A DNA stretch of 64,000 nt from an uncultured Planctomycetales bacterium (GTDB lineage: Bacteria > Omnitrophota > Gorgyraeia > Zapsychrales > Fredricksoniimonadaceae). Below are positions 1-25,767 of this stretch, in pieces. Every line of letters starts with the position of its first letter. Position 1 is the first letter of the stretch. The stretch lies in contig CAYTIW010000007.1 of NCBI GenBank assembly GCA_964438075.1, positions 1 to 64,000 on the forward strand. The letters are read 5' to 3'. Under the pieces are notes generated by a model that made no database searches, was not told the DNA's origin, and saw only the letters and a list, made by a program, of their open reading frames with translations. Both the position numbers and the translations under genes were made by a program.

Positions 1-3000
1 GTGAACTGGGAAGACGTGGAGGCGTTGACGAAGACGGGAGTGAATTGGACGGATATAGAGGTTATAAGCAAGACGGGTATTAACTGGACAGATCTGGAAA
101 ATATTTCCAAAACAGGAATAAATTGGGCTGATTTGAATGCTTTGACTTTGGCAGGGATAAACTGGACCGATATTGAAACAATCTCCAAGACTGGTATCAA
201 TTGGACGGACCTCGAGGTCATGACGGTCGAAGGAGTTAATTGGAGCGATATAAACAAATTAAGTGATACCGGCATAAATTGGGCTGATATCGATGTGCTG
301 AGCAGAACCGGCATTAATTGGTTGGATATTGAATCCATGAGTAATAGAGGAATTAACTGGTACGATCTAAGTGCTTTGTCTACAACAGGTATTAATTGGC
401 TGGATATTGAAGTCATATCTGATACTGGAATTAATTGGATGGATGTGGCGTCTCTATCGAGTTCCGGAATAAATTGGAATGACATGGAGATGTTTTCCAA
501 TGCCGGGATCAATTGGTCCGATCTAGAGTCAATGACCCGGACAGGTGTGAATTGGACCGATCTGCAAATTATGAGCAACTCCGGGATCAACTGGAACGAT
601 TTAGACATAATGAGTACGGTGAGTGTTAACTGGACGGACATAGCTACGTTGTCATCGAGTGGAGTGAATTGGACGGATATCGAAGCGCTTTCCACGACCG
701 GCATAAATTGGTCCGACTTGAACGCCATGACTTTGGCTGGAGTTAATTGGGCAGATATTGAGGCGTTATCCCACACAGGTATCAATTGGTTAGACCTGGG
801 AACGATGACCTTGTCAGGTGTAAACTGGGATGACATCAATTCTATGACGTTAGCCGGGGTTAATTGGAGCGACATTGAAACGATCTCCCAAGCGGGTATT
901 AACTGGACTGATATAGAAACCTGGACCAAAGCGGGCATAAATTGGACAGATTTTGAAACTATGACCGTGTCTGGAATTAATTGGGATGATCTGCAGGAAG
1001 CCACAAATTCGGCGGTAAATTGGACTGATATCCAGGCACTCTCCTTGGCTGGTATCAATTGGATAGATTTTGGTAGTCTGTCTAATGCGGCTATTAACTG
1101 GACGGATTTGGAGGCAATGACGAAAGAAGGTATTAATTGGACGGATGTGAGTGCTTTATCGAATATAGGTATGAACTGGTCTGATCTGCAATCGATGACC
1201 ATCTCCGCTATTAATTGGGCAGATATGGTGACTATGAGTAGTGCTGAAATCAATTGGGAAGACCTGGCGGTCATGAGTTCGACTGGATTGAATTGGGAAG
1301 ATATCGGCATTTTAAGCGCCGCCGGAGTTAATTGGTCGGATCTGGATATCATGAGCAGAAGCGAGATCAACTGGTCTGATCTATCGGTGCTGACTTCTTC
1401 GGCTATCAATTGGATGGACATGGAAGTTCTATCGAAGAGCGGCTTGAACTGGGCCGATCTGGAATCTATGACGGTTGCAGGTGTGAATTGGACGGATATT
1501 GAAGCATTGAGTAAGACTGGGGTTAATTGGATTGATATCGAACGGCTATCAAGCAGTGACATAAATTGGGAGGATATCGAACGCATATCAACTTCATCCA
1601 TAAACTGGACAGATATAGAACAATTATCTGTTTCGGGAATCAATTGGGCCGATATGGCCACCCTGAGCGCATCAGAGATCAACTGGGCAGATATAGCCGC
1701 CATGTCTTCGGAAGCTGTGAATTGGCTGGATTTGGAAGTATTGAGTAAGACGGGTGTAAATTGGGCCGACTGGGAGGCGATGACCGTTGCTGGTGTAAAT
1801 TGGACGGATATGGAAGCAATATCCAAAGCGGCGATCAACTGGACCGATCTGGAGACCATGACCGTCACTGGGGTAAATTGGATGGATCTGGAATCAATTT
1901 CCAAGACGGGTATCAACTGGTCAGATCTAAACGCCATGACCGTCGCTGGGGTGAATTGGACGGACATGGAAGTTTTAAGCAAGTCGGCGGTAAATTGGAT
2001 GGATATGCAGACACTTTCATCAGCAGCCATTAACTGGGTTGATATGAGTGCGATGTCGTTAGCGGGAGTCAATTGGACAGATTTGGAAATTCTGTCAGAA
2101 CAAGGTGTGAATTGGATCGACATTGAAACACTTAGTACGGCAGGTATAAATTGGGAAGATATACAGTCGCTTACAACTTCCTCTATTAACTGGGGGGATA
2201 TTGAAGTTATAAGCAAGACGGGAGTTAATTGGGAAGATATATCCGCCTTGAGTTCAACTGGAGTTAACTGGACCGATCTGCAGTCAATGACGATGGCAGG
2301 TGTAAATTGGACGGATTTGGAGACCATTTCCAAGACGGAAATAAACTGGATGGATTTGTCTGCCATGACCCTGTCCGGGGTCAATTGGAACGATATTTCC
2401 GCTATGAGTGCGAACGGAGTTAACTGGACCGACTTGCAGTCGATGAGCATGGCGGGGGTCAATTGGACAGATATGGAGTACCTTACCACTGCAGAGGTCA
2501 ATTGGTCGGATCTGGGAACTTTGAGCAACGCTGGTATTAATTGGTTGGATATAGATTCTTTAAGCAATACCGGCATTAACTGGTCAGATATCAATATCAT
2601 GTCTGATGCCGGAGTTAATTGGTCGGACATTGCTTACCTTACCTCATCGAATGTGAACTGGACCGACCTCGAATCCCTAACCAAAACCTCTGTAAATTGG
2701 GCTGACCTCGAGTCCATCACCAAGGCAGCTATCAACTGGACCGACCTGGAATCCATGACCAAGGCTTCCGTCAACTGGACCGACCTCGCAGCATTAACAG
2801 TCACGGGTGTTAATTGGGCGGACATAGAAGCCATTTCAAAATCCGCGATCAACTGGACCGATCTACAGTCAATGACGATGGCCGGTGTAAATTGGACCGA
2901 TCTCGGCGCTATGACATTGACGGGAATTAATTGGGACGATATGCAGGTTCTGCATGAAAATGGGGTTAACTGGGACGACTTGGCGTTCATGAGCCGCGCT

Positions 3001-6000: not shown

Positions 6001-6380
6001 AGTGGTATTAATTGGCTGGATATCGGCCTGCTTTCCCAGGCCGGGGTCAACTGGGCTGAGATCGCAACGATGTCGTATGCGGACTTGAATTGGGATGAGA
6101 TAGCGGTAATGACGGATAGCGGGATCAACTGGTATAGCATAGGCGATATGACAGCTTCGCAGATCAACTGGAACGACGTGGCGGTTATTTTTGAATCCAG
6201 TATCAATTGGGATGATCTGAGTGTGATGTCTACCCGAGAGGTGAACTGGGCTGACGTCACTGTTATGACCACTTCCGATGTTAACTGGGGTGACGTGGGT
6301 GGTTTCTCCACGACCGGTGTCAATTGGGCAGATATGGCCAGGATGACCCATTCTAATATAGACTGGAGAGAAATGAGTTA
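1..6380 (+). repeat. Coding tandem repeat array, 39-bp period (13 codons), ~160 units, degenerate at synonymous positions
   Basis: Recurrent gg[n]aa[ct]tgg[n]c[n]gat motif every 39 nt. Units differ mostly at wobble positions while the G/N/W/D codons persist. Confidence 0.85.
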
Positions 6381-7083: not shown

Positions 7084-7086
7084 GCA

Positions 7087-8433
7087 ATGGTGGGACAGGG
7101 GCGTGGTTTTAAATTCCCGGTCCGGCGGATCGTTGCTCTGTGGTCTTTTGTTCTGTATCTTTTTTTATCCCTGCCTGTCTTCTCGGATGTTGTGATCAAC
7201 GTGTTGGCTGTTAACGGTTCCGACAAGACGATCGAGAAAGATATCCAGTTCAGTCTTCCAGGGGAGATCACGCCCCCTGACCTGGTAGACGCGGCAGGGC
7301 TGAATTTGGACTATAATTTTAATGATTCTGGATACTATTTGCATGGCAAAGTATCTTTGCAGGCCAAGGAAACGAAGACCCTGCGCGTAAAGATACGCGA
7401 TGTTTGGCAATTATCCGACCAGGATGTAAATGCCATCAGGACCGAGATCGAGCAAGGCTTCAAGGAGATGGGCGCCGAACGTAACAAGGATAATGGAGAG
7501 CTATTAAGGAAAAAGCTGGTTGATAAACTGGAGTATATCTTAGCCGACCAAGCCCAGAACGCGGAGAACGTTGAAACACGCATCGATACTTATCGTAATC
7601 ATATCCAGACGCTGAATGAAATAAGGTCCCAAGCCAGGGCCATTGATTATTGGCGTTCGGATGCCAAGGAACCAGAGAACAATAAGACTGTTTATTACAA
7701 AGTTTTGGTTGAGAACCCCGGCGATAAGACCAGGAAGGTGAAGCAGCATCATTATCTGCCGAAAGAGGTCCTGCCGGAATATATTATCGACCGCAAAGGG
7801 TACGAGATACGTTTTGATGACAAAAAAAATCGGCCCTTTCTCTTTAAAGAAGAGGACATAGCTTCGAAGGAAAAAAAAGAAGTAAGTTTTGCTATCAGAG
7901 ACAAATGGTATATTCCTCAGAACGAAATAAGCTATGTACGTGAAAGGGCCAAATATGTAAATGATATCCTGGCCAAGTCCAAATATGTGGAGACCTCGCG
8001 GGGGCTTTTTAATAATATCACTAATTACCTGGACTTGATCGATATGCTGCAGAAGATCGAGCAGCCGGATATTCAGCAACATATCGGGGCTTATCGGCTT
8101 AATGAGGACCGGTTCGAGAAGGCCAAATCTGATCTGGATGATATAGAAAAGCTGCTTTCGCGCCACCGGGCCGAACTGGAGAAGAGCAAGGTCAAGAATG
8201 TCTTGCAGAAGATACAGTCCATGAAATCGCTGGCGCGTGTTTCTCAGGCGATTTTTGACAAGAAACCGACCGTGAATGCCGCTTGGAAGATAATCGGCAG
8301 CGTGCTGATCTTCTTAGGTATTTTTTCTATCATACATTTTGCGACTTGGTTTGCGCGTTCCTCGCGTGAAAGAAAACAGGAGCTTTTAAAAGAGGCAGAG
8401 GCTCAAGCGCATTCGCAGACCAAATCTGGATAA
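7087..8433 (+). CDS. Hypothetical bitopic membrane protein: N-terminal signal/TM helix, long charged coiled-coil-rich ectodomain, C-terminal TM helix
   Basis: ORF with GAGGAG RBS. Hydrophobic N-terminus (IVALWSFVLYLFLSLPVF) and C-terminal hydrophobic stretch (IIGSVLIFLGIFSIIHFATWF). No family recognised. Confidence 0.6.
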   Translation: MVGQGRGFKFPVRRIVALWSFVLYLFLSLPVFSDVVINVLAVNGSDKTIEKDIQFSLPGEITPPDLVDAAGLNLDYNFNDSGYYLHGKVSLQAKETKTLRVKIRDVWQLSDQDVNAIRTEIEQGFKEMGAERNKDNGELLRKKLVDKLEYILADQAQNAENVETRIDTYRNHIQTLNEIRSQARAIDYWRSDAKEPENNKTVYYKVLVENPGDKTRKVKQHHYLPKEVLPEYIIDRKGYEIRFDDKKNRPFLFKEEDIASKEKKEVSFAIRDKWYIPQNEISYVRERAKYVNDILAKSKYVETSRGLFNNITNYLDLIDMLQKIEQPDIQQHIGAYRLNEDRFEKAKSDLDDIEKLLSRHRAELEKSKVKNVLQKIQSMKSLARVSQAIFDKKPTVNAAWKIIGSVLIFLGIFSIIHFATWFARSSRERKQELLKEAEAQAHSQTKSG

Positions 8434-8448
8434 TAACTTCGGAGATTT

Positions 8449-9915
8449 ATGAGCATAAAAGTACAGTATACGGAAGTCGGATACGTGAAAGCCATCCGCG
8501 GTTGTATCGTTATCGTGACCGGTTTTGGCAATTGCATTAACGGCCAGTTGATCCGGTTCGGATACGGCACTATCGGGATGGTTGTCGGGTTCACGGAGAC
8601 AGAGGCCCAGGTGCTGATCCTGAAAGAGACAGAAAAGATACGTACCGGCCAGGAGGCGCAAGCTTCGGTTGAACCTCTGGTCACACCCGTTGGAAAGAAT
8701 TTTATCGGCCGTATAGTTAATCCGCTAGCCGAGCCGTTGGATGGGCTGGGGCCGATCGTGCCGGATGATATTGCACCGATCTTTCCGGAATCGCCTCCCA
8801 TCCTGGACCGGCAGCCTTTGAACAAGACCTTGGAAACCGGGATCAAAGTCCTCGATGCCATGATCCCTATCGGGCGCGGTCAGCGGGAATTGATCCTCGG
8901 CGATAAAATGACCGGGAAGACCACCTTTGTTACGGATACGATCGTCAACCAGAAAGATGCCGGGGTAATATGTATTTATTGCGGTATCGGCAAGGCGCGT
9001 TCCAGCCTGGCAAAAGTGGTGCAGCTTTTCAAGGACCGCGGATGTTTCGATTACAGCATAATAGTTTCCGCCTCGGCATCCTCACCGCCTGGCCAGCAGT
9101 ATCTGGCCCCGTACGTGGCCTGTTCATTGGGGGAGTATTTCATGCGTCGCGGACAGGATGTTTTTATCGGATTCGACGATTTCACTAAGCATGCCTGGTC
9201 TTACCGGGAGATATCCTTACTATTGGGACGGCCGCCGGGGCGTGATTCTTATCCGGGAGACATATTTTATCTTCACTCCAAAATGATCGAACGCGCCTGT
9301 TTCCTTTCCAAGGAGAAAGGCGGAGGGTCCATGACTTTCTTCCCGATCGTTGAGATACTCGAAGGGGATCTTACCGCCTTCGTGCCCTCGAACCTGGTCT
9401 CCATGACAGACGGTCAGATATACCTCAGCGCCCAGCTTTTCGGTGAAGGGCAGAAACCGGCCCTGGATCTAGGCTTGTCCGTTTCCCGGGTTGGATCCAA
9501 GGTCCAATGGCCGGCTATCAAGGCGTTGTCCGGGCCTCTGCGTTTGGAGTACCTGCAGTACCGCGAATTGCTGCGGATTTCCAAGTTAAAGACCTCCGGT
9601 CAGTCTGAGGACATGAAGCAGAAATTGAAACGCGGTTCGATACTGACCGCCATCCTCCGGCAGTACAAGGATTCGCCGGTGTGCCAGGAAATGCAGGTGT
9701 TGATATTCTACGCCTTTAACAAGAAGTATCTGAACGATTTCACAATCGAGCAGGTCGACGCTTTTCAGAATAGCTGTCTGGAGTATACCAAGAACGTGAA
9801 GCCGGAATTTTTGACGCTATTGAGAGAGCGCCGCAAGTTGGACCCCGAGATCGAGAAATTGATGGATGAAGTTATAAATGGCCTGTCAGCGCAAGTAACT
9901 GGGAAGGGGCATTAA
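8449..9915 (+). CDS. atpA: F-type ATPase alpha subunit homolog
   Basis: Motifs GRGQRELILGDKMTGKTT (P-loop region), QYLAPY, SLLLGRPPGRDSYPGDIFYLHS. Collinear with bacterial AtpA over the full length. Confidence 0.85.
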   Translation: MSIKVQYTEVGYVKAIRGCIVIVTGFGNCINGQLIRFGYGTIGMVVGFTETEAQVLILKETEKIRTGQEAQASVEPLVTPVGKNFIGRIVNPLAEPLDGLGPIVPDDIAPIFPESPPILDRQPLNKTLETGIKVLDAMIPIGRGQRELILGDKMTGKTTFVTDTIVNQKDAGVICIYCGIGKARSSLAKVVQLFKDRGCFDYSIIVSASASSPPGQQYLAPYVACSLGEYFMRRGQDVFIGFDDFTKHAWSYREISLLLGRPPGRDSYPGDIFYLHSKMIERACFLSKEKGGGSMTFFPIVEILEGDLTAFVPSNLVSMTDGQIYLSAQLFGEGQKPALDLGLSVSRVGSKVQWPAIKALSGPLRLEYLQYRELLRISKLKTSGQSEDMKQKLKRGSILTAILRQYKDSPVCQEMQVLIFYAFNKKYLNDFTIEQVDAFQNSCLEYTKNVKPEFLTLLRERRKLDPEIEKLMDEVINGLSAQVTGKGH

Positions 9916-9978
9916 ATTTAGTTCTTATGCGGATGTGTTTTATCTGAGGCTGCTAGAGGTGAGGGAGAAAAGCGTTCT

Positions 9979-10248
9979 ATGCCACCATTATATAAGGGGA
10001 ATTTCCGTTGCGTGATCTTGAGCGCCAAGCGTTTGGTATTTGAGGCTGAGATAAACAGCCTTTTTATTACCGGTGATAGGGGAGAGTATGAGCTTTTGGC
10101 ATATCATTATCCTCTTATCGGTATCGTTAAAGGCGATATTGTGATCAATTGGGAAAAACGTTTGCCGGTAAGGGGCGGGGTGGTGCGGTTCTTCGCTAAT
10201 GAATGCAATGTCATGATCGAAGAAGCCCCAGCTCAGAAAACCAACTGA
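9979..10248 (+). CDS. atpC: F-type ATPase epsilon subunit homolog, beta-sandwich domain only (C-terminal helical hairpin absent)
   Basis: 89 aa. Pattern ...FITGDRGEYELLAYHYPLIGIVKGDIVIN... matches the epsilon N-terminal domain. The protein ends where the inhibitory helices would begin. Confidence 0.6.
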   Translation: MPPLYKGNFRCVILSAKRLVFEAEINSLFITGDRGEYELLAYHYPLIGIVKGDIVINWEKRLPVRGGVVRFFANECNVMIEEAPAQKTN

Positions 10249-10263
10249 GATTAGAGGGAGGCC

Positions 10264-10482: not shown

Positions 10483-10485
10483 TCG

Positions 10486-10716
10486 ATGCAATTTCAGTAT
10501 TGGCCCGAAGGATTGATATTTATAGCCCTGTTCACGTTTATTATCGGGTTCCCCTGTGTCATGGTGGCTATATTGGGAACAAAACTTATTAATTATATAG
10601 GTCAGTATCCGTCCAAGTGTGCCAGGCGTCAGATGATAGCGTGTTTGCAGCTTTTTGTGATTGAGCTGATCTCGTTCGCGATCTTGGCGCTTTTTTATCA
10701 TATCTTTTCCGATTAA
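10486..10716 (+). CDS. Small 2-TM membrane protein between the c and b genes (AtpI/AtpR-like position; function unknown)
   Basis: 76 aa with two hydrophobic segments and Arg residues (ARRQMIA) next to the second helix. Starts 4 nt after the c-subunit stop. Far too short to be subunit a. Confidence 0.5.
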   Translation: MQFQYWPEGLIFIALFTFIIGFPCVMVAILGTKLINYIGQYPSKCARRQMIACLQLFVIELISFAILALFYHIFSD

Positions 10717-11498: not shown

Positions 11499-13791
<2,293 letters not shown>

Positions 13792-15539: not shown

Positions 15540-15634
15540 TGCCTTTTTGCCCATTTTTACTTCAGCCCCCTGTCCTGGTGTTTTGCATCGTTGGGATCGT
15601 TCGATGACTCTAAATAATGAAAGGGGCCGGTCCC

Positions 15635-16846
15635 ATGCCGGTTTTTGCCTATAAAGCCAAAAAAGACAATGCTGAGACGGTCCTGGGCGATATCGTGGCC
15701 CGGGATGCCAACGAGGCTATCGAGATGGTCAGCCGTCGCGGTCTCTTGCCGGTCGCCGTTGAAGAGAAGGAAGGAGAGGGTGCGGCATCTGTATTGGGAT
15801 TGTCTGCCGGAAATGTCCGTCGAAAAGACATCATGGTGTTCACGGGGCAGTTGGTGAGCTTGCTGAAGGCCGGGGTCCCTCTTCTGCAATCGATAGAACT
15901 GTTGTCAAGGAAGACACGCAACGCCAAACTAGCCTATGTTCTGTCCGATATCGCGCTGAACATACGCAACGGCAAAACTTTCTCCGCAGGACTGGAGGAT
16001 CATCCGGATATCTTTGAGCCCCTGTATACGGCTATGGCCCGGGCGGGTGAGGAAGGCGGGAGCATTCGGGAAATGCTGGCTGAGATGGCTGATTATTATC
16101 GCAAGCAGGAAGATATCGCCCTAAAGGTCCGCGGCGCGCTGACTTACCCGGCGGTCATGTTGGTAGCCGGTATCGGCACGGTCATTTTTGTGCTTACTTT
16201 CGTGCTGCCTAAGATCAAGGTGCTTTTCAAGGATATGCATACGGCGCTCCCCTTGCCAACGGTGATAGTACTCAAGTTGAGCGAGATGGTGCAGAATGGG
16301 TGGCCCGTGATCCTGGCTATTGCGGTCCTGGGCGCTTTATCATGGCAATCCCTCCGTCGCATGGCAGCTTTCCGGAGGGCCGTTGGCCAGGTCATTTTTG
16401 CCTTGCCATGGGTAAGGGAGTTTGCCTTGAAAATAGAGATGCAGAGGTTCACCAGGACCATGAGCTTCCTGCTGGAAGGCGGCATCCCTATATTGCGGGC
16501 TTTGGAGCTGGCCATCCCGACACTGTCAAATGAAACTTTGAAGGATGACCTGGGCAAGTGCAAAGATATGATAGCGGACGGCGCCACCTTTGGGGACACG
16601 CTAAGACGTTCCGTTCTCATACCTGATATAGTGCCGTCATTGGTAGCGGTAGGGGAAGAGGCCGGCGCGCTCGCACAATCACTCAGGGATATAGCGGAGA
16701 CTTACGAGCAGGAGATCGGCGAAAGCACCAAGGCCATGTCGACCCTGCTGGAACCGCTCCTGATTCTCCTGGTGGGATCGGTGATAGCCTTCATTGTTTT
16801 TGCTATGTTGATGCCTATATTTCAGATGGATATTTTCGCCCAATGA
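15635..16846 (+). CDS. gspF: Type II secretion inner-membrane platform protein (GspF/PilC family)
   Basis: Start MPVFAYKAKK... is typical of GspF. Two GspF-domain repeats with three TM segments. The ORF track extends 6 codons upstream, but an RBS favours 15635. Confidence 0.85.
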   Translation: MPVFAYKAKKDNAETVLGDIVARDANEAIEMVSRRGLLPVAVEEKEGEGAASVLGLSAGNVRRKDIMVFTGQLVSLLKAGVPLLQSIELLSRKTRNAKLAYVLSDIALNIRNGKTFSAGLEDHPDIFEPLYTAMARAGEEGGSIREMLAEMADYYRKQEDIALKVRGALTYPAVMLVAGIGTVIFVLTFVLPKIKVLFKDMHTALPLPTVIVLKLSEMVQNGWPVILAIAVLGALSWQSLRRMAAFRRAVGQVIFALPWVREFALKIEMQRFTRTMSFLLEGGIPILRALELAIPTLSNETLKDDLGKCKDMIADGATFGDTLRRSVLIPDIVPSLVAVGEEAGALAQSLRDIAETYEQEIGESTKAMSTLLEPLLILLVGSVIAFIVFAMLMPIFQMDIFAQ

Positions 16847-17685
16847 CCCTGACATGGAAGTTCATAGCGCCGGTGGCCGTGTTATGGTTAGTTATGGTTA
16901 TGGGCCCCGCGCGGGCCGTTGAAGAGCCATTTCGTGAACTTAAGGGCGATCATTTTATTGTCAAATATTTGCTTGAGGATGAACGCAGCCGGGCTGTCCA
17001 GATATTAACCCGCGCGGAGTTATATTATAAGAGGGTGGCTGAAAGTATCGGTTATAACCGTTACCAGGAATACTGGACTTGGGAACGGCGCGTGACCGTA
17101 GTTCTTTATCCTGACCAACTGTCCTACGCCAAGTTCACCGGACAGCCACAGTGGTCCAAGGGGTATGCCAGCCGGGATTCCAAACTGTTCAGGACCAAGG
17201 TGATCGTTTCCTATGATGGCCAGCCTGAATTCCTGGAGGAGATATTGCCGCATGAGATCGCACATTTGATCCTGTGGGATTTTCTCGGATTTACCCGTAA
17301 GGTGCCGATATGGTTCGAGGAGGGCTTGGCCCAGCGGGAGGAGGATGGCAAGAGAGCCGTTGTGCAGCAGGCCATGAAGGAAGTTGTCATTTCCGGGAAC
17401 GATATCCCTTTTGCCACCTTCCATGGACTGGATGTGGGCAGGATCACGGACCCGGTGCAGGTTTCATTGTTCTATGCCCAAAGTCTCTCGGTGGTGGAGT
17501 TCATGATCGGTAAATACGGCCGTGATGCTTTCAGGAACTTTTGTCGTGAGATACGGGAAGGCCGGGCGTTCGAGGAGGCTTTGCCCCGCGCCTACCCGGC
17601 CATCTTTCGGACGGTGGATGATCTGGGATCGAAATGGAAGAATTATATGCAGAATGAAGTTGTTTCTTCAGGAGGCGGGCTATGA
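16843..17685 (+). CDS. Secreted gluzincin-like metallopeptidase (HExxH ... E), family uncertain (Peptidase_MA-like)
   Basis: Signal peptide. HEIAHLILWDF followed about 18 aa later by WFEEGLAQ, giving thermolysin-like zinc ligand spacing. Overlaps the gspF stop (ATGA). Confidence 0.5.
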   Translation: MTLTWKFIAPVAVLWLVMVMGPARAVEEPFRELKGDHFIVKYLLEDERSRAVQILTRAELYYKRVAESIGYNRYQEYWTWERRVTVVLYPDQLSYAKFTGQPQWSKGYASRDSKLFRTKVIVSYDGQPEFLEEILPHEIAHLILWDFLGFTRKVPIWFEEGLAQREEDGKRAVVQQAMKEVVISGNDIPFATFHGLDVGRITDPVQVSLFYAQSLSVVEFMIGKYGRDAFRNFCREIREGRAFEEALPRAYPAIFRTVDDLGSKWKNYMQNEVVSSGGGL

Positions 17686-18089
17686 ATAACAGCAGAGGGT
17701 TCACGCTGGCAGAGATAATGCTGGTGGTCATCATAATAGGGGCCTTGGCGGCCATGGTCGTCCCCCGCTTGTCCGGCCGGTCCGAACAGGCCCGTATCGC
17801 CGTAGCCAAGGCGGATATAAAGACCAACATCCCTACCGCTTTAAAAATGTACGAGTTGGACAACGGAATGTATCCAACTACAGAGCAGGGTCTCCAGGCT
17901 CTCCGGGAAAAACCATCGTCCGCCCCGGCCCCCAGGTATTGGCACGGGCCTTATTTGGAACAGGATCCGGTGGACCCTTGGGGTAATCCTTACTTTTACG
18001 AATCACCGGGGACCCATCGCTCAGATTACGACTTATATTCCAAAGGCAAGGACCAGAATTCTCCCGATGGTTACATCACCAACTGGTAA
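17682..18089 (+). CDS. gspG: Major pseudopilin GspG (T2SS)
   Basis: Prepilin leader plus GFTLAEIMLVVIIIG. Conserved GspG core LDNGMYPTTEQGLQAL...GPYL...DPWGNPY.Y.SPG...YDL.S.G.D...DI.NW. AGGAGG RBS. Confidence 0.9.
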   Translation: MNNSRGFTLAEIMLVVIIIGALAAMVVPRLSGRSEQARIAVAKADIKTNIPTALKMYELDNGMYPTTEQGLQALREKPSSAPAPRYWHGPYLEQDPVDPWGNPYFYESPGTHRSDYDLYSKGKDQNSPDGYITNW

Positions 18090-18528
18090 CAGGACCGCCC
18101 ACCGCCGAAGCTTTTTCCCGGACTCAAGGGTGGGGCTGACTTTCGTCGAGGTCATGGTCACCTCGGTAATACTATCGGCGGGGCTGGTGGCGATTTACCG
18201 GTCTTTCTTCATCGCAGCTGACGTCGTGCAGCATCTTTCCAACCGGCTTTACGCCCTGAATCTGCTGGAAAACAAGATCACAACGATAGAAAGGGATTTC
18301 CGGTCGCGGAAAGATTTCGATATCGGCCCCTTGACTGAAGACGCCGTGGTGAATAATCATCCCGTGGTTTTTCAGTATCGAGTGGAACTAAAGCCGGTGG
18401 GCAGTCTTCTGACAGTGTTCCAGCTCGACATTTCCTTGTCCTGGGAGGAAAGGGGAAGGTTTCGGAGCGTTTCCCGTTCGGCCTATTTTTCCGGTGTGAC
18501 CCCCTTGGAAAAGGGGGATGCCTCATGA
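18067..18528 (+). CDS. Minor pseudopilin (GspH/GspI-like)
   Basis: G|LTFVEVMVTSVILSAGL N-terminal methylation-type hydrophobic helix after a basic leader. Operon position. The exact start is uncertain. Confidence 0.55.
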   Translation: MVTSPTGNRTAHRRSFFPDSRVGLTFVEVMVTSVILSAGLVAIYRSFFIAADVVQHLSNRLYALNLLENKITTIERDFRSRKDFDIGPLTEDAVVNNHPVVFQYRVELKPVGSLLTVFQLDISLSWEERGRFRSVSRSAYFSGVTPLEKGDAS

Positions 18529-19148
18529 GCTTTCGACACGAAAGGGGCCTTATGAAATCCTGCCGTAACTCCGGCTTTACTCTGGCCGAGGTCCTTTTGG
18601 TAACGGTCCTTTTCGCTTCCATAGGGCTGGTAGTTTTCAACTGCCTGAACAATGGCCTCAAACTATGGATGAGGAGCCAGAGCCTGGTTGACGAGCAGGA
18701 TGCGATCGTTTTCTTTGACCGTATAGCCGGGCATTTGCGCAACGCCTTCCTTTATTCAGAGATCCAATTTGCCGGAGAGCCTGAACGGCTGGCATTCCCG
18801 ACGGTTGTTTATACCCCAGCGGACCGGGCAAGTTCGCGTGCCTGGGAAGGATACGTGGAACAGATAGGGATGGTCCGGTATTCCTTTGATGTCGCCCGAG
18901 GCAATGTCTTGCGTGAAGAGGCTGATTATTCTCTCGCCACCCGGGGCAGCTTCGGCCCGGCGAGAGTGGAAGTAAAAGGGGTCAAAGACCTCCGTTTCAG
19001 GTATTACTACTCCGGACACACAGAACCTTCCTTGACCGCTCACGATCAAAAGGCGCTGCCGGCCGGGGTGGAGGTGGAGATACGTTTGGCGGGAGACGGC
19101 GCTGAGAAGGTGTTGAAACGCTATGTGCCTATCCCGGCGGGGAGTTGA
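18525..19148 (+). CDS. Minor pseudopilin (GspJ-like)
   Basis: NSG|FTLAEVLLVTVLFASIGLVVF prepilin-type N-terminus. 207 aa. Overlaps the neighbouring genes. Confidence 0.55.
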   Translation: MSFRHERGLMKSCRNSGFTLAEVLLVTVLFASIGLVVFNCLNNGLKLWMRSQSLVDEQDAIVFFDRIAGHLRNAFLYSEIQFAGEPERLAFPTVVYTPADRASSRAWEGYVEQIGMVRYSFDVARGNVLREEADYSLATRGSFGPARVEVKGVKDLRFRYYYSGHTEPSLTAHDQKALPAGVEVEIRLAGDGAEKVLKRYVPIPAGS

Positions 19149-19149
19149 T

Positions 19150-20178
19150 ATGCGGGTATCGTCCAGCCAAGGCGGTTTTATATTGATCTTTACTCTGTGG
19201 GTGCTTGGTTTTCTTTCCGTTCTGGCTATCGCCGTCGGAATGGGTTCCCGGCAGAAGATCGCTTTTCTGGAAAGGCTGGAAGACCGCAGCCGGCAGCACC
19301 TGTCCGCAGAGGCCGGGGCCAAGAAGGCGCTCGCTTTGTTGGTCGACGATATCGAGAACAACAAGTTGGCTTTTAACGCCGAGGCCAAGTCCCGTAGGCA
19401 TAATAATCCGGCTGATTTCTCCGGCATTGTTGTCGGCGATAACGGATTCGATGTCTTACACACGGTTTATGACGAAACATCCGGCGCCATGGTGGAACGC
19501 TATGGGGTTTCCGACGAGCAGGGAAAACTCAACCTTAACAACGTCAGTGGCGAACAGCTGGCCAGGCTCTTGGCAGACGTTTTGGGCATGACGACCGAAG
19601 AGGCGCGGAAACAGTCCCAGGCTATTATAGACTGGCGCGATTATGGCAAACATGAAGCCGAAGGTTTTTTTAGCGACGATTATTATAAGAATCTCGAGCA
19701 TCCTTATGAGATGAAGGAGAAGCCCTTCGAACGCATCGATGAACTCTTGCTGGTGAAGGGGCTTGATAATAATAAGTACCATAAATTGCTGCCGTTCGTC
19801 ACGGTATGGGGAGATGGCAGGGTGAACATCAATACCGTTTCGGAGAGGGTCCTCGTTGCGCTGGGGCTGGATCCGGCAGTGGCAGAAAAGGTCCTTAAGG
19901 TCCGCCGGGGAACGGATGACCTTGAATCTACCAGCGACGACCATATATTCACCCGGGCTTTTGATGTTGCCGTTGAGGTCAAGGCGGTCTTGCCTCTGGA
20001 AGAACGCGAGATGCGGCAGATCGACGCCCTTAACACCCGCGGGCTGTTGTCGGCCAATTCTTTTTTGTATTCCATTCGAAGCCGGTCATTGCTGGCTGAC
20101 GGAAAAACAGGCGGGGCAGAAGTGAACATGGTTTTTGATGCTTTGGCCAATAAAATCGTATTCTGGTTCGAAAAATAA
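19150..20178 (+). CDS. gspK: Minor pseudopilin GspK-like
   Basis: N-terminal hydrophobic helix GGFILIFTLWVLGFLSVLAIAVG. About 340 aa with HhH-like segments (ERVLVALGLDPAVAEKVLKVRRG). ATG at 19150 has a GGGGAG RBS; the ORF track begins at 19123. Confidence 0.5.
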   Translation: MRVSSSQGGFILIFTLWVLGFLSVLAIAVGMGSRQKIAFLERLEDRSRQHLSAEAGAKKALALLVDDIENNKLAFNAEAKSRRHNNPADFSGIVVGDNGFDVLHTVYDETSGAMVERYGVSDEQGKLNLNNVSGEQLARLLADVLGMTTEEARKQSQAIIDWRDYGKHEAEGFFSDDYYKNLEHPYEMKEKPFERIDELLLVKGLDNNKYHKLLPFVTVWGDGRVNINTVSERVLVALGLDPAVAEKVLKVRRGTDDLESTSDDHIFTRAFDVAVEVKAVLPLEEREMRQIDALNTRGLLSANSFLYSIRSRSLLADGKTGGAEVNMVFDALANKIVFWFEK

Positions 20179-20244
20179 ATCAGTTTTGGGTTGATTGACG
20201 GAAAAAGCTTAGTCTATAATGTAGCCATCAAATGCGGAGAAAAC

Positions 20245-21744
20245 ATGAAGCTTAAGCGGTCGCGATTCGTCAGCATAGCCATAAGTGCGACTTCGGTAAA
20301 GGTCGCTCTGATCAAAAGTTCAGGTTCCGTCGAGAGACTGGTAATCCGTAATATCGACAAGGGCAGTCCCGACAGCGCGCTGCAATCTGCTCTCACCGGC
20401 CTGCCAGTGAAAGGCGCGGATATCCTTTGTGTGATCCCGGGTGAGGTGGCGACTACCAAGAACTTGGAGATCCCCTCAGTCGATCATGAAGAAATTGAAT
20501 CTATCCTGGCCCTGCAGGCCTCCCGGCATACTCCTTTCAACAAAGACGAGATATTGACCTCTTATATCAAACTCGGCAACCCGAGATCAAATTTTACCCG
20601 GGTATTAATGATCGTTGTCAAACGGGACACCGTGAAAGATAAACTGGCTATCATCAAGCGCGCCGGTCTCAATATCAGCACGGTCATGTTCGTGCCTGAG
20701 GGCGTTGCGCGTTTTTATGCCGCGGCTCTCAAGGTGAAGAAGAACGATCTGCCGCTTGCGATAGTCGATGTCGGACTGCAGAACACGAATTTCATGATCG
20801 AATCGCAATCCACGATCGTGATGTCACGCAATATACCCATTGGCATTCAGCAATTTGGCACCGACACTGAAGCGTCCAACTTTCTGGTCAAAGAGATCAA
20901 GGCCTCCATGGATACTTATGAACAGGAGTCCGTCGACCGCAAGCCGGGACGTTTTATCCTTACTTCTAAACATGTGGCCTTGTCCGGGTTGGAGACGCAC
21001 ATCGCGGCCATTATGCCCGGCGCCCGTTGCGAAATCGTACCCTACCAGAATTTAGTGAAGTCAGGCAAGGAGGTTAAAGAAGTACTGGCGAAGAGTTTTT
21101 CCGATGATTCCGCGCTGGACGTCATCGCTCCGGCGGTGGTGGCGGCGAAATGTCAGGCCGAACTGGTCCCGCAGGATATCAAGGACCAGCGGGCGATCGT
21201 TGAAAAGGGACGGGCGACCTATATAGCGGGTGTGCTGATCACGCTTTTGTTGCTTTCGGTAGGAGGGGCTGTGATGAGCAAACTTTATTACAAGGATACT
21301 TTCCTGAAAAGGAACCTGATCGCCAAGTACGCCTCCCAAAAGCAGGAAGTCAAGGACATCGAGACTTTGATGCGCAAGACCAAGATCCTGCGTGAATATA
21401 TGCAGACCCGCGACATAGCGCTGGAATCTATCCGTGAACTCTATCGGCTCACTCCACCGGAGATCTATTTCAATAACATCAGCCTGGATGAGGCTGACGG
21501 CAGTGTTTCGATCCAGGGGATAGCCGATGACATGTCGAACGTGTTTTCCTTCGTGCCCGCACTTGAGGCGTCCGCATTGTTCGAGGGAGTTAAGACCAAG
21601 TCCACTTCGACGAAGAAAGACCGTGAAAAGACCGTGGCGGCATTCGAGATCGTGATGCAGTTGAGCAACCCCGACGGCAGAACAAAAGCCAAGCCGGTGA
21701 GTGAGGCGTCGGCTTCACCGGCGAAAACTGAGAAGGCAAAATAA
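20245..21744 (+). CDS. GspL/PilM-PilN-like bitopic assembly protein (cytoplasmic actin-like domain, one TM helix, periplasmic domain)
   Basis: N-terminal region resembles the PilM/GspL cytoplasmic domain. Single TM helix (YIAGVLITLLLLSVGGAVM) at about residue 340. ATG at 20245 has a GGAGA RBS. Confidence 0.55.
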   Translation: MKLKRSRFVSIAISATSVKVALIKSSGSVERLVIRNIDKGSPDSALQSALTGLPVKGADILCVIPGEVATTKNLEIPSVDHEEIESILALQASRHTPFNKDEILTSYIKLGNPRSNFTRVLMIVVKRDTVKDKLAIIKRAGLNISTVMFVPEGVARFYAAALKVKKNDLPLAIVDVGLQNTNFMIESQSTIVMSRNIPIGIQQFGTDTEASNFLVKEIKASMDTYEQESVDRKPGRFILTSKHVALSGLETHIAAIMPGARCEIVPYQNLVKSGKEVKEVLAKSFSDDSALDVIAPAVVAAKCQAELVPQDIKDQRAIVEKGRATYIAGVLITLLLLSVGGAVMSKLYYKDTFLKRNLIAKYASQKQEVKDIETLMRKTKILREYMQTRDIALESIRELYRLTPPEIYFNNISLDEADGSVSIQGIADDMSNVFSFVPALEASALFEGVKTKSTSTKKDREKTVAAFEIVMQLSNPDGRTKAKPVSEASASPAKTEKAK

Positions 21745-21755
21745 GGAGTCCCGCC

Positions 21756-22391
21756 TTGATCAATAATTTTATATCCGGACTGAAACCGGGCCAAAGGAAG
21801 GTGCTGGCGGTCCTGGCCGTTGTGCTCATATTGGGCCTGTTCGGGGGCATATTCCTTTATCCGGCTTGGAAAAGTTCGAACAAGATCGACGAATTGATCG
21901 CCAAGGAAAAGGAGACCGTCCGTAAGAACGCCCTTTTCTTGGCGAAACGCGAAAAAGCCGTGAAGGAAGCCGCGGTGTTCAAGGATTATTTCACTAAAGA
22001 TGTGCGGAGTGAAGAGGAGGTGATCGCGGACCTTCTCAAGAGGCTTTTGCAGCTGGCCAATAATTCCGGGGTGCAGGTATCTAAACTTTCCACGCCTGTG
22101 CAGGAAATGCAAAAGGATTATCTATTGTATGTGGTTTCGGCAGACTGTACGGGCACATTAGAAAACCTGACCAATTTTATCTTCGCGATAAACAACTCCC
22201 CGGAATTGATCAAGGTCTCCAAGATGCACCTGGGGAGCAGTGCGAATGCCAAGAATGCCGGAACCATACAGGCCAGTCTGACCATATCCAAGATGATCAT
22301 CGGTGCCGATCCATCCGTCGAGGCAAAGAAACTTGTACGTGTCCAGGAAAAGAAAGAAGCGGCGAAGCCCGCTGCCACATCCAAGGAATAG
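21756..22391 (+). CDS. GspM/PilO-like bitopic protein
   Basis: Single N-terminal TM helix (VLAVLAVVLILGLFGGIFLY), then a ~180-aa periplasmic domain. TTG start with an AGGAG RBS directly after the GspL-like gene. Confidence 0.5.
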   Translation: MINNFISGLKPGQRKVLAVLAVVLILGLFGGIFLYPAWKSSNKIDELIAKEKETVRKNALFLAKREKAVKEAAVFKDYFTKDVRSEEEVIADLLKRLLQLANNSGVQVSKLSTPVQEMQKDYLLYVVSADCTGTLENLTNFIFAINNSPELIKVSKMHLGSSANAKNAGTIQASLTISKMIIGADPSVEAKKLVRVQEKKEAAKPAATSKE

Positions 22392-22425
22392 TCTTTTAGC
22401 CGCCGGCGTTTCGCCTGTCCCCATT

Positions 22426-23232: not shown

Positions 23233-23287
23233 TCAGAAAGCAAGGGCTTTAACTCAATGGCAACTTCGGGTATCGAGAAGTAAGGGC

Positions 23288-24949
23288 ATGGGACAGCTGG
23301 TTAACAGGATCAATAAATATTTCCTTGACCGGGCAGAGTTGTGGATACTGGGCCTGGGCATTTTGCTGCGATTGAAGCATTACCTCGAGAACCGTTCTTT
23401 GTGGCTGGATGAAGCTTGCGCGGCTGTCAGCGTGGCCAGCCGCAGCTATAACGAGATATTGAGCCATTATGAGGTCATGCCGGAGTTCGCGCACCCTCCG
23501 ATGGTCTTCATGCTGATAGAGCGTTCACTGGTAGACCTCTTCGGCAATAACGAGATGTCATTGCGGTTGTTCCCGTTGCTTTGCGGGATCGCCGCCCTGT
23601 TGCTCTTTTTCCTGCTGACCCGCAGCATCCTTCCGCGGGGGGCGTTCCTGCTGGCACTGGCTCTCTTCGCCGTGATCGACCCCTTGGTCTATTATTCCGC
23701 CGAGCTTAAGCAGTATTCTACCGACCTGGCGGTCATGATAGCTCTTTTGTTCTATAGCGAGGAATTCATCAAGGAGAAATGCTGCTGGATAAAGGCCGGT
23801 GTCCTGGCATTGCTGGGAGCGGCGGTATTATGGCTTTCCAACGCCATGGTCTTTATGCTGGCATCCATGGCCGCGGTATTTCTCTGGAGGGCGGTCAGGC
23901 GCAGGGATTGGGCCGAACTTTTACGTCTGGGGAGCGCCTTTTTTGTGTGGGCGGCCAGTTTCGCGGCGGTTTATCATTTGTCCTTGGGCCATATGGTCGG
24001 GAATGATAAACTTAAGGCTACTTGGGAAGGAGCCCTTTTCAAGGGAAGTCTTTTTTCCGGCGACGCCTTGGCCTGGCTCTGGCAGGTGGTGAGCGAAAGT
24101 TTCCGCAATCCCTTGGGGCTGGCCTGGCCCTTGGCTGGGGCCGTTCTCTTTGTGGTCGGTGTGCTCAGCCTGGTCCGGAACAACTCTGCACGTGCGGCGC
24201 TGCTGGCGTTGCCTATATTTTTTGCTTTGGTGGCCGGCTGGCTAGGCAAGTATCCTTTTCGAGGCCGGGTGCTGCTTTTTTTGGTGCCCTGTTATCTGGT
24301 GCCTATCGCGGCTGGCGTTGAGGCCATAGCGGCAAAGATCGGGAATAAACGCTCCCATCGCGCCGTATGGGCGATATTGGCCATAGCGCTTCTGGCGTAT
24401 CCTCTTCAGGTCGCGGCGCGGAACTTCATTCAGGGCCGCGAATGGGTGGAGAACCGCCCGGCAATGGAGTTCTTTCGGGACCATTATGAGCCGGGGGATT
24501 TCGTGGTGATGAACACCTCGGCCCAGCCGCCGTTCTGGTATTATGTCGGCAGCCTGGGTATCGGGGTCGAACTGCGGCGTGAACCCATCGGCCGGTTGGA
24601 TGGCAAGACGGTGGAAGGGATGCGGGTCGCCAAGTTCGCCCGGGACATGGTAGCCACCAAGGACGGCCACCGTTTGGTAGCTTTCAGGTATGAGTACCAC
24701 ATTTTTAATGAGAAAGGCCTTTTCCGCCAGATGGTGCTCCGTAATGCCCGGGAGGCGTATTTCGTCCGCGACGACAGGGCAGTGGAGGGCCTTCCTGCCG
24801 GGAGGGTCTGGCTGGTGCTGTCCCAAGCCCCGGAGGATGACGACCGCGAGATCAACGGCATCATCCGGGATGCGTTTGACCGGCGGGCGAAAAGGCTGCT
24901 GAGCTGCGAACGTATGAATGCAGCTGTGTACTTATATGACATGCAATAG
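23288..24949 (+). CDS. GT-C fold membrane glycosyltransferase (ArnT/PMT-like, GT39/GT83-type)
   Basis: 553 aa, about 11 predicted TM helices. DE motif directly after TM1 (WLDEACAAV), typical of PMT/ArnT-type enzymes. Soluble C-terminal domain. Followed by a polyprenyl-phosphate sugar synthase-like GT2 gene. Confidence 0.5.
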   Translation: MGQLVNRINKYFLDRAELWILGLGILLRLKHYLENRSLWLDEACAAVSVASRSYNEILSHYEVMPEFAHPPMVFMLIERSLVDLFGNNEMSLRLFPLLCGIAALLLFFLLTRSILPRGAFLLALALFAVIDPLVYYSAELKQYSTDLAVMIALLFYSEEFIKEKCCWIKAGVLALLGAAVLWLSNAMVFMLASMAAVFLWRAVRRRDWAELLRLGSAFFVWAASFAAVYHLSLGHMVGNDKLKATWEGALFKGSLFSGDALAWLWQVVSESFRNPLGLAWPLAGAVLFVVGVLSLVRNNSARAALLALPIFFALVAGWLGKYPFRGRVLLFLVPCYLVPIAAGVEAIAAKIGNKRSHRAVWAILAIALLAYPLQVAARNFIQGREWVENRPAMEFFRDHYEPGDFVVMNTSAQPPFWYYVGSLGIGVELRREPIGRLDGKTVEGMRVAKFARDMVATKDGHRLVAFRYEYHIFNEKGLFRQMVLRNAREAYFVRDDRAVEGLPAGRVWLVLSQAPEDDDREINGIIRDAFDRRAKRLLSCERMNAAVYLYDMQ

Positions 24950-24960
24950 GAAGAAATGAT

Positions 24961-25767
24961 ATGGCTATTGAAGTAGCGGTGATCATCCCGAGCTATAATG
25001 AACGTCCCAACGTCAAACCCATGCTGGAAAAACTAAGGGTTGCGCTCAATGGTATAGAGTGGGAAGTGATATATGTTGACGATAATTCTCCCGACGGCAC
25101 AGCTGAATGCGTATGGGAAGAGTCGCGCCTCGACCCAAGGGTCCGCTGCCTCAAGCGTATCGGCCGGCGCGGCCTGTCTTCCGCCTGCATCGAGGGCATG
25201 CTGTCCACTGCGGCGCCGTTCATGGCGGTGATGGATGGCGACCTTCAGCATGATGAAACTATCCTGCCCGATATGCTGGGGGCCCTCAGGACGGGAAAAG
25301 TGGATGTCATCGTCGGGAGCCGTTATGTGGCTGGGGGGGGCATAGAGGATTGGGCATTGCATCGCCAAGCGGCCAGCCGGTGGGCCACGCGTTTCGCCCA
25401 GTCAGTGGCCGGCATCCAGCTGCAGGACCCGATGAGCGGTTTTTTCATGCTGCGGAGGGATTTCTTCCAGAAATGCGTCGGTCAAATAAGCGGCAAAGGA
25501 TTCAAGATACTGTTGGATATCCTGATGTCTTCGCGGGAAAAGGTGAATGTGATAGAGATACCTTACAAGTTCCGGATGCGCCAGCACGGTAAAAGCAAGC
25601 TGACGCCGAAGGTCATCCTGGACTATTTCTACCTGGTGTTCTACAAGATCTGCCAACGCAATCCTTGGTTGCTCTGGTTACTGGTTTCCACTGTGATATT
25701 GCTGATGCTGGCGCTAGGGGCGCGCATGCACCTTTCCACCCCGATGGTAAAGACGACCTGGTGGTAA
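24961..25767 (+). CDS. GT2 polyprenyl-phosphate glycosyltransferase (Dpm1/ArnC/GtrB-like)
   Basis: VIIPSYNE...YVDDNSPDGT...DGDLQHDE (DxD region), a GT-A fold, and C-terminal TM helices as in ArnC/GtrB. Confidence 0.75.
   Translation: MAIEVAVIIPSYNERPNVKPMLEKLRVALNGIEWEVIYVDDNSPDGTAECVWEESRLDPRVRCLKRIGRRGLSSACIEGMLSTAAPFMAVMDGDLQHDETILPDMLGALRTGKVDVIVGSRYVAGGGIEDWALHRQAASRWATRFAQSVAGIQLQDPMSGFFMLRRDFFQKCVGQISGKGFKILLDILMSSREKVNVIEIPYKFRMRQHGKSKLTPKVILDYFYLVFYKICQRNPWLLWLLVSTVILLMLALGARMHLSTPMVKTTWW

Follow-up and report, generated by a model that had tools for sequence, protein, structure and literature searches.

The first 25,767 nucleotides (nt) of contig CAYTIW010000007.1 (assembly GCA_964438075.1), from an uncultured bacterium recorded as Planctomycetales and placed by GTDB in the Omnitrophota class Gorgyraeia, are occupied by 21 consecutive open reading frames (ORFs) on the forward strand. 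We analyzed this block within the 64,000-nt stretch that starts the contig, referred to here as the window. The genes encode a repeat fiber protein, a membrane protein here called X, a set of F-type ATPase subunits, a pseudopilus assembly machine resembling the type II secretion system (T2SS), and two glycosyltransferases (GTs) (Table 1). From the fiber gene to a gene for a tetratricopeptide repeat (TPR) protein, their order and strand are the same in every sufficiently long locus of related bacteria, and we propose that they may encode one envelope machine.

Gene content and packing of the block

The block was defined by ORF listing and translation, and its genes are closely packed. In gene order, the intergenic distances are 3, 15, 63, 15, 3, 14, 12, 10, 2, and 77 nt and, from the GspF/peptidase pair onwards, -4, -4, -23, -4, -26, 12, 11, -89, 55, and 11 nt, with negative values denoting overlaps; the 89-nt overlap between the PilO-like and TPR genes shrinks if the latter starts at a later codon. 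A preliminary description of this DNA had counted 22 forward-strand genes that overlap or are separated by 0 to 60 nt. The co-directionality stands, but the ORF listing gives 21 genes, and two of the gaps, of 63 and 77 nt, exceed that range. The spacings that it singled out were found as described: position 7083 ends the fiber gene and 7087 begins the next one, the gene for ATPase subunit beta stops at 13791 and that for GspE starts 2 nt further on at 13794, and the genes for GspF and an HExxH peptidase overlap in an ATGA sequence (16843-16846). Pfam likewise confirmed the annotations given to the ATPase, gsp-like, GT-C, and GT2 genes, and the atp-like and gsp-like genes do form a single tightly packed, co-directional block. 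If gene orientation were random, the chance of 21 co-directional genes would be approximately 2^-20.

The only strong terminator-like element is a bidirectional hairpin that closes the forward-strand block and matches the first convincing terminator previously placed at 25811-25850. Other terminator-like matches inside the block are weak and lie within coding sequence, and a check for internal terminators that would separate the genes found no convincing one.

Table 1. Genes and features of the block and its downstream border (window coordinates)
Feature	Coordinates	Strand	Basis or remark
NW-repeat fiber protein, C-terminal 2360 aa	1..7083	+	repeat spacing; N-terminus outside window
Protein X, 448 aa, type-I membrane protein	7087..8433	+	no Pfam family; AF2 model
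F-type alpha	8449..9915	+	TIGR00962 atpA 521.6 > 484.45
Epsilon, 89 aa, N-terminal beta-sandwich only	9979..10248	+	PF02823 29.9 > 27
c subunit, 72 aa	10264..10482	+	PF00137 31.3 > 24
c2, 76 aa, two-helix divergent c paralogue	10486..10716	+	hhalign
b-delta fusion, 251 aa	10731..11486	+	OSCP profile positions 97-168 of 172
Gamma, divergent	11499..12356	+	PF00231 100.4 > 39.9
Beta, catalytic	12367..13791	+	TIGR01039 atpD 537.9 > 462.85
GspE/PilB-type assembly ATPase, MshEN N-domain + T2SSE	13794..15539	+	Pfam, NCBIfam
GspF/PilC-type inner-membrane platform protein	15617..16846	+	Pfam, NCBIfam
Secreted MA-clan HExxH metallopeptidase	16843..17685	+	Peptidase_MA_2 49.6 > 32.4
GspG-type major pseudopilin	17682..18089	+	TIGR01710 154.6 > 88.85
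Minor pseudopilin, 153 aa, prepilin-type N-terminus G|LTFVE	18067..18528	+	sequence; conserved position
Minor pseudopilin, 207 aa, weakly GspJ-like	18525..19148	+	T2SSJ E 4e-4 + N_methyl
GspK-like minor pseudopilin	19123..20178	+	T2SSK_1st 59.4 > 26.2
PilM-PilN fusion, GspL equivalent, assembly platform	20191..21744	+	Pfam
PilO/GspM-like bitopic protein	21756..22391	+	PilO/T2SSM Pfam
TPR protein, N-terminal hydrophobic segment	22303..23232	+	Pfam; start probably near 22333 per L001 gene call
GT-C (PMT_2)	23288..24949	+	Pfam; outside conserved system
GT2	24961..25767	+	Pfam; outside conserved system
Bidirectional intrinsic-terminator-like hairpin	25812..25846	both	16-bp stem
STT3-family GT-C (843 aa) + trypsin-like peptidase	26087..29380	-	conserved convergent neighbors

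Conservation of gene order among relatives

Relatives were collected in two ways. One genome per GTDB species was scanned with a profile of ATPase subunit gamma, which gave 108 relatives; 80 loci were kept (gamma identity, 44-92%), all labeled Omnitrophota or, in some cases, mislabeled Planctomycetales, with lineage judged by record names. Metagenomes were scanned with the PilM-PilN fusion (PilMN) as the seed and thus independently of the ATPase, which yielded 34 loci of at least 12 kb, all Omnitrophota-like. Comparison by tblastn with all window proteins showed that order and strand agree in all loci of sufficient length among the 80 species and the 34 metagenome loci: fiber, X, alpha, epsilon, c, c2, b/delta, gamma, beta, GspE, GspF, in most loci the MA-clan peptidase, GspG, two minor pseudopilins, GspK, PilMN, the PilO-like protein, and the TPR protein, whose gene is the last conserved one on this strand. 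The context is the same where the beta homologues are 70-79% identical, and in the metagenome loci the ATPase genes lie upstream of PilMN whenever the sequence reaches far enough. The adjacency of atp-like and gsp-like genes was thus kept in every related locus examined. Across loci, median intergenic distances are small; the gap between the beta and GspE genes has a median of 15 nt and is at most 150 nt in 60 of 67. The one break of this junction seen is an insertion in L047 (4984-8433), where a 1149-aa secreted protein is encoded between the two genes on the same strand; an insertion at this place was also noted in L122 and probably in L106.

The conserved system ends before the GT-C and GT2 genes (23288-25767). 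These were absent from all 32 informative loci of the PilMN-seeded scan; the loci from GTDB genomes stop near the TPR gene and are uninformative at this point. Lying between the TPR gene and the terminator, the two genes are therefore a lineage-specific insertion and not components of the system, and the earlier suggestion that they belong to the apparatus was not upheld.

The fiber protein

The window contains the C-terminal part of the fiber protein, in which 163 in-register units of 13 aa follow the pattern [ST]x[AST]G[VI]NWxD[LI]xx[ML]. The spacing is 13 in 162 of 162 intervals, with zero indels over 2100 aa, and the repeats are followed by a helical domain of approximately 230 aa that ends in VVIKTWFESEE. 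In each of the 60 loci whose sequence extends upstream of X, the gene directly before X encodes a protein with a tryptophan at every 13th position. A complete 868-aa orthologue from L040 carries a Sec-type signal peptide and a nonrepeat N-terminal region, while the orthologue in L009 reaches 6697 aa. Short-read contigs of this and related strains terminate inside the repeat, so that fiber gene lengths in metagenome-assembled genomes are systematically underestimated.

AlphaFold2 (AF2) modeling of the last 14 repeats with the C-terminal domain gave one short helix per repeat unit at an unreliable predicted local distance difference test (pLDDT) score of approximately 45, and the helical domain itself was modeled with moderate confidence only. 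Pfam matches of the repeats to Ntox33, pentapeptide, and Lysostaphin_N families were rejected as artefacts of summed repeats, as no single stretch was significant alone. N-glycosylation of the repeat asparagine had come to mind because NW[ST] is similar to a sequon and the cluster has a conserved STT3-like neighbor; as a conserved feature it was discarded, since orthologues differ widely in their NW[ST] fraction (3% to 75%) and WWSPG replaces WWDYG in the STT3-like protein.

Protein X and its fusions

Protein X has a signal peptide, two modules that each combine a beta-sandwich with a three-helix bundle, a conserved C-terminal transmembrane helix, and a short cytoplasmic tail (AF2 model, pLDDT 90.5). 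The Pfam scan, which covered the 20 complete genes of the cluster and 30 of the larger downstream ORFs of the window, assigned it to no family. A profile search of 1.84 billion representative proteins identified a family of 952 representative homologues, and within this family two classes of fusion were found.

In the first class, large surface proteins carry the X module at the C-terminus. The C-terminal motif of the fiber here meets the first sandwich of X, with the junction reading VIKTWFES|GSVVLK (...VIKTWFES|GSVVLKMVVVNPS...), and one such fusion protein carries NW-like 13-aa repeats. These fusions argue that the fiber and X act as a unit, with X as the likely inner-membrane anchor. In the second class, which comprises proteins of 610-692 aa (P0237, P0244, P0250, P0252, P0258, P0272, P0277, P0285, P0287, P0290, P0301, and P0311), X is followed by a cytoplasmic GGDEF domain. 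This domain was detected in all 10 of the X proteins of this length tested with Pfam and in 2 more taken from gene-context tables, and in both genomic contexts seen, the X-GGDEF gene is directly followed by the gene for ATPase subunit epsilon. The X-GGDEF fusions fix the topology of X, placing the sandwiches outside the cytoplasm, and they tie X to cyclic di-GMP (c-di-GMP) signaling, which matches the extra PilZ domain found on most GspE orthologues.

The F-type ATPase

Alpha and beta score above the respective NCBIfam equivalog cutoffs (atpA and atpD), and both match PF00006 with an E value of approximately 1e-69; family membership was judged throughout by Pfam thresholds and these cutoffs. 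In the PDB, both match canonical F1 subunits best. The P-loop (GGAGCGKT) and catalytic motif of beta do not vary among its orthologues (74 of 74), and 63 of 63 alpha orthologues have the arginine finger, S[VI]SRVG. By these sequence criteria, the alpha3beta3 head looks canonical and active.

The other subunits are remodeled: gamma, epsilon, c, b, and delta pass Pfam thresholds and fall far under the NCBIfam equivalog cutoffs (for gamma, 73 against 194 for TIGR01146). The alignment of alpha begins at profile position 20, which indicates that approximately 19 N-terminal residues, canonically those that bind delta, are absent. Epsilon matches profile positions 2-81 of 130 and lacks the C-terminal inhibitory helices, with a family median of 100 aa. 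The b-delta fusion comprises one transmembrane helix, a coiled coil, and a C-terminal delta/OSCP domain; beyond the partial OSCP match, NCBIfam matches to b and delta are weak, and an orthologue matches PF00430 (ATP-synt_B). The membrane glutamate in helix 2 of c is kept in 71 of 72 orthologues. Directly after c, always and with a median gap of 9 nt, lies c2, whose profile aligns with that of c at an hhalign probability of 97.9% (E value, 3.9e-13) and which retains the glutamate in 58 of 71 orthologues. We considered whether c2 could be a fragment of subunit a or AtpZ and ruled this out, as it is a c paralogue and has no conserved arginine.

No gene for subunit a accompanies this set. No ATP-synt_A match was obtained in the Pfam scan of the cluster and downstream ORFs, and neither a motif search with regular expressions nor tblastn with an approximate Escherichia coli AtpB query produced a match in 175 related loci (2.35 Mb, approximately 10 kb around the cluster). 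Subunit a is also absent from the gene tables of sister clusters that are described below. The absence of an accompanying subunit a, together with the remodeled rotor and stator, suggests that the complex is probably a device driven by ATP hydrolysis rather than a chemiosmotic synthase. Of two genomes with alpha in published KEGG orthology tables (Seymour et al.), one has alpha and beta and no K02108, but as c and gamma were missed there too, this case is uninformative; a 2026 preprint on 176 complete genomes (bioRxiv 10.64898/2026.06.07.730766) offers no information on subunit a.

With regard to other ATPases, a V-type ATP synthase has been reported for "Candidatus Aceula lacicola" and "Candidatus Aceula meridiana" (PMC8542988), which correspond to our cluster-bearing loci L067 and L082, a V/A-type ATPase has been reported in 70-99% of Gorgyraeia, and enzymes of this type have been described as common in the phylum. 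This fits the F-type set being an extra, specialized enzyme in these lineages.

The T2SS-like pseudopilus machine

The major pseudopilin passes the GspG equivalog cutoff and has the prepilin site G|FTLAE. GspE, GspF, and GspK have clear Pfam domains and score below their equivalog cutoffs (588 against 630, 325 against 424, and 85 against 130, respectively), as does GspE against the PilB equivalog (577 against 676). The family median of the GspE orthologues, most of which carry the PilZ domain, is 714 aa. PilM, PilN, and PilO homologues are present, and neither PilT nor PilQ is found in the cluster. With a GspG-type pilin, PilB under its cutoff, and no PilT or PilQ, the cluster falls outside the definition of a type IVa pilus (T4aP). 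No secretin (GspD), GspC, or prepilin peptidase was found among the window ORFs scanned; the side upstream of the fiber gene lies outside the window.

A sister family with a different ATPase gene order

The contexts of divergent X proteins led to sister clusters in which the ATPase genes are arranged differently. In L180, the following are encoded on one strand: a PilZ protein, MerR, an ExeA-like AAA protein, a GspB/C-like protein, a secretin, a TPR protein, two FGE-sulfatase-domain proteins, a fiber-X fusion of 1851 aa, epsilon, c, b/delta, alpha, a second alpha (alpha'), gamma, beta, GspE, GspF, and GspG. Beta and GspE of L180 share 55% and 48% identity with those of the window, respectively. 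As in the window's family, X or fiber-X directly precedes the ATPase genes and beta directly precedes GspE, and it would be difficult to account for both junctions outliving this reshuffling of the ATPase genes if there were no functional coupling.

Secretins are encoded in the sister clusters L176 and L180, and an ExeA-like gene is found in sister clusters. These genes point to a secretin module as part of the system; for the window's family, such a module may lie upstream of the fiber gene, where assemblies break. The preliminary description had proposed an apparatus serving the repeat fiber, and this is strongly supported, as the fiber and X are always encoded directly upstream and form one polypeptide in the sister family.

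Two further features of these clusters were observed. One or two secreted FGE-sulfatase (SUMF1-like) proteins are encoded immediately upstream of the fiber gene in three independent loci from both families (L040, 86-2960, with two such genes; L178, 253-1755; L180, 5554-8583). The alpha' paralogue of the sister family (L180, 17181-18635; L176, 12141-13457) has SVSIIG at the arginine-finger motif, against SVSR[VI]G in alpha, and this sequence difference suggests that the sister family may have a heterogeneous alpha/alpha'/beta head.

Comparison with described systems

The preliminary description was not aware of any rotary ATPase module described in the context of giant genes near secretion-system genes. 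However, Seymour et al. (2023, Nat Microbiol; PMC10066038) reported a "nonrespiratory" or "symbiotic" F-type ATPase adjoining T4aP clusters in all Omnitrophota classes, including 56 of 111 Velamenicoccia species and "Velamenicoccus archaeovorus" LiM, with ATPase and T4aP genes within 10 kb of each other on 57 of 66 contigs, and proposed a role in attachment to or motility on host cells (PMC10066038). The window, with beta and GspE genes 2 nt apart and closest homologues named Candidatus Omnitrophica or Omnitrophota, has the composition by which those authors defined the locus and is a member of this class. Three points differ between the two accounts. Giant ORFs were treated there as a separate trait, whereas we find the fiber to be a fixed upstream partner; the pilus was called a T4aP, whereas the major pilin passes the GspG equivalog; and alpha was grouped with the type-2/3 ATPases of Mycoplasma, which the NCBIfam cutoffs do not support. 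The accessible portions of the text and supplements of that study make no mention of a missing subunit a, c2, the b-delta fusion, X, an NW-repeat protein as a fixed partner, or the fiber-X and X-GGDEF fusions. Apparently new, then, are the link between the fiber and X, the absence of subunit a, the c2 paralogue, and the fusions.

Giant genes near secretion systems in Omnitrophota, which the preliminary description invoked as the same context, are of a different type: the giant "Archaeovorins" of West-Roberts et al. (2023) have T2SS/Tad-like genes upstream and pilZ and sugar-import genes downstream, and an ATP synthase is never mentioned in that work.

Compared with the canonical F1Fo operon (atpIBEFHAGDC), the window has homologues of alpha, beta, gamma, epsilon, c, b, and delta, with conserved catalytic and c-ring carboxylate residues. 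It differs in lacking a and atpI, in having an additional c2, a short epsilon, an alpha without its N-terminus, and a fused and shortened b-delta, in its order (alpha, epsilon, c, c2, b/delta, gamma, beta), and in being embedded between the fiber/anchor genes and gspE. The N-ATPase operon (atpDCQRBEFAG) is similar in being a second, specialized F-type operon beside another ATP synthase; subunit a is retained there, however, and membership was rejected, as the window proteins score below the alt_F1F0 cutoffs (alpha, 491 against 750.5; beta, 448.5 against 752; gamma, 23 against 282; b, 44 against 225).

The gliding motor of Mycoplasma mobile ("G1-ATPase") is an F1-derived ATPase recruited from ATP synthesis and genetically tied to very large surface proteins for attachment and movement. 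Such type-2/3 ATPases resemble the window in combining an F1-derived enzyme with large surface proteins, and Seymour et al. also invoked this parallel. Unlike the window, the Mycoplasma clusters lack c, b/delta, and Gsp genes, and the T2SS-type genes here, with the secretin in relatives, point to an outer membrane. Membership in these types was rejected with the MMOB1660/1670 and MSC_0619/0618 models (alpha, 391 against 600 and 283 against 520; beta, 414 against 850 and 380 against 570), and the G1-beta PDB chain 9io5_A scores 341 bits, against approximately 450 for canonical beta.

The machine shares GspE, GspF, GspG, minor pseudopilins, GspK, and GspL/M-like proteins (PilMN and PilO) with T2SSs that have an ExeA/ExeB-assisted secretin, and the sister clusters add the ExeA-like AAA protein, the GspB/C-like protein, and the secretin. 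Unlike these systems, it has only four pseudopilins, an interleaved MA-clan peptidase and TPR protein, and a rotary ATPase in the same block. In Bacteroidota gliding and the type IX secretion system (T9SS), the GldLM rotary motor drives the giant repeat adhesin SprB, and secretion, motor, and adhesin form one machine for motility and attachment; the likeness to the window is one of analogy only.

Proposed function and alternatives

Gene content, conserved order, the fusions, and intact catalytic motifs are the observations from which an interpretation has to start. The recurrence of the block in more than 100 related species indicates that it probably encodes one envelope machine, and on balance we favor, with fair though by no means full confidence, the reading that the locus is a phylum-wide Omnitrophota supercluster for a single machine with three coupled modules. 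The first module would be a Sec-exported fiber of variable length, whose helical C-terminus docks on X as a type-I inner-membrane anchor. The second would be an F-type rotary ATPase with a canonical head, a remodeled rotor and stator (short epsilon, divergent gamma, c plus c2, and a compact b-delta), and no subunit a. The third would be a T2SS-like, c-di-GMP-controlled pseudopilus assembly machine, which in relatives includes an ExeA-like protein and a secretin. In our working model, the pseudopilus machine would extrude or position the X-anchored fiber through the outer membrane, and the ATPase beside the X/Gsp platform would supply ATP-derived mechanical work or local membrane energization with which the fiber is deployed or moved during attachment to host or prey cells. 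We infer the direction of the ATPase and this biological role from sequence.

A more specific and rather speculative proposal, to which we give only a small chance, is that the ATPase lacking subunit a is a rotary motor within a secretion machine and that torque is passed via X to the fiber, which would be rotated, reeled, or extended through the secretin. ATP hydrolysis would then turn a rotor of gamma, epsilon, and c/c2 relative to a stator that consists of b-delta and the inner-membrane platform of the Gsp machine. The C-terminal transmembrane helix of X, whose gene occupies the usual operon position of subunit a, could contact or plug the c-ring, and torque would be relayed across the inner membrane to the periplasmic part of X and, with it, to the attached fiber.

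Several points weigh against a single machine of three modules. Both co-expression and the association of the modules are deduced from gene content and order. The available sequence of the window's family includes neither a secretin nor a prepilin peptidase. Structure searches with X gave no specific or informative neighbor and hence no functional clue, and the modeling of the fiber repeats yielded no confident structure. Alpha and beta score as ordinary subunits, the conserved glutamate of c would be expected if ions were still translocated, which would require an a-like partner, and a gene for subunit a could lie elsewhere in the genome, beyond the approximately 10-kb loci searched.

The last three points lead to the strongest alternative, a normal ion-translocating F1Fo complex, either a synthase or an ATP-driven H+ or Na+ pump, with subunit a encoded elsewhere and the other genes placed in the Gsp operon for co-regulation, for example, so that membrane potential or ATP turnover increases locally while the secretion machine is being produced. 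The atpA/atpD scores, the invariant catalytic motifs, and the presence of every rotor and stator subunit but a fit such a complex, as does the fact that type II secretion requires a proton-motive force as well as ATP, and the conserved c-ring glutamate keeps this alternative in play. However, subunit a is missing beside c and b in more than 100 species and in two gene orders, whereas the known split atp operons keep a together with c and b. In addition, the C-terminal domain of epsilon and the N-terminus of alpha are missing, and delta is remodeled; the same genomes reportedly rely on V/A-type ATPases; and X is always found where a canonical operon would start. We therefore regard an ordinary F1Fo complex as unlikely, although it deserves serious attention.

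A different function for the head is also conceivable, namely, that of an ATPase for fiber export or unfolding, comparable to FliI6-FliJ at the flagellar or type III gate, with c/c2 and b-delta as a mere membrane dock. F1 alpha and beta are homologous to FliI/SctN, to which there are weaker NCBIfam matches, and the ATPase genes invariably have those for a very long exported protein on one side and those for a secretion machine on the other. The fiber has a Sec-type signal peptide, however, so that SecA should export it; the alternating alpha and beta subunits and the retained gamma and epsilon point to rotary catalysis; and no gene for an export gate (FlhA/SctV-like) was found among the cluster genes scanned with Pfam. 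This makes an export ATPase very improbable.

Hardly credible, finally, is a purely historical linkage, in which atp and gsp operons were joined once in an Omnitrophota ancestor and kept by inertia without coupling: although all loci come from one phylum-level lineage as judged by record names and highly expressed operons can be stable, the block is intact while its flanking genes vary, the accessory insertion in L047 leaves order and strand unbroken, the X-ATPase and beta-GspE junctions outlast the ATPase rearrangement in the sister family, and the fiber-X and X-GGDEF fusions bind neighbors functionally.

F-type ATPases are textbook energy converters, and to our knowledge the Mycoplasma gliding motor is the only well-studied F1-like enzyme recruited for another task. 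Here, a near-complete F1Fo set without subunit a is locked together with a fiber, an anchor, and a T2SS-like machine in at least 100 species of ultrasmall, probably host-dependent bacteria and also in a sister family with another gene order. If the three modules do form one machine, a rotary ATPase would directly power secretion, adhesion, or motility in a manner that is new, and the attachment of Omnitrophota to other cells, or their predation on them, would become accessible at the molecular level. Were torque indeed passed to the fiber, the system would be a third bacterial rotary surface machine beside the flagellum and GldLM/T9SS and the first driven by an F-type enzyme. The enrichment culture of V. 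archaeovorus, which reportedly has such a locus, makes the system experimentally approachable.

Flanking genes and other features of the window

Beyond the terminator, the neighboring pair of an STT3-like GT-C and a trypsin-like peptidase is itself conserved, being found right after the TPR gene in 28 of the 32 informative loci and invariably in the opposite orientation. A tRNA gene (25898-25971, reverse strand; Rfam, 60.7 bits), the one RNA identified by an Rfam scan, lies between this STT3-like gene and the bidirectional terminator. A second PMT_2 GT-C is encoded at 41760-43205 on the reverse strand, beside an unannotated 493-aa ORF and a B12/radical-SAM protein (38694-41662).

The region 52000-56000 has a GC content of 0.395, compared with 0.50-0.56 elsewhere in the window, and includes several ORFs without a Pfam match (52581-53432, 54126-54689, and 54708-55490); it may be a foreign island. 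At 58055-63764 on the reverse strand lies a set resembling membrane-bound hydrogenase or complex I, with a NuoB-like, two antiporter-type, a NuoH-like, and a NuoK-like subunit, which indicates that the organism has another ion-translocating complex. Finally, the segment 43308-48321 encodes a 956-aa aconitase directly followed by a split pair of the aconitase family (493 and 203 aa), which is probably an isopropylmalate or homoaconitate isomerase.

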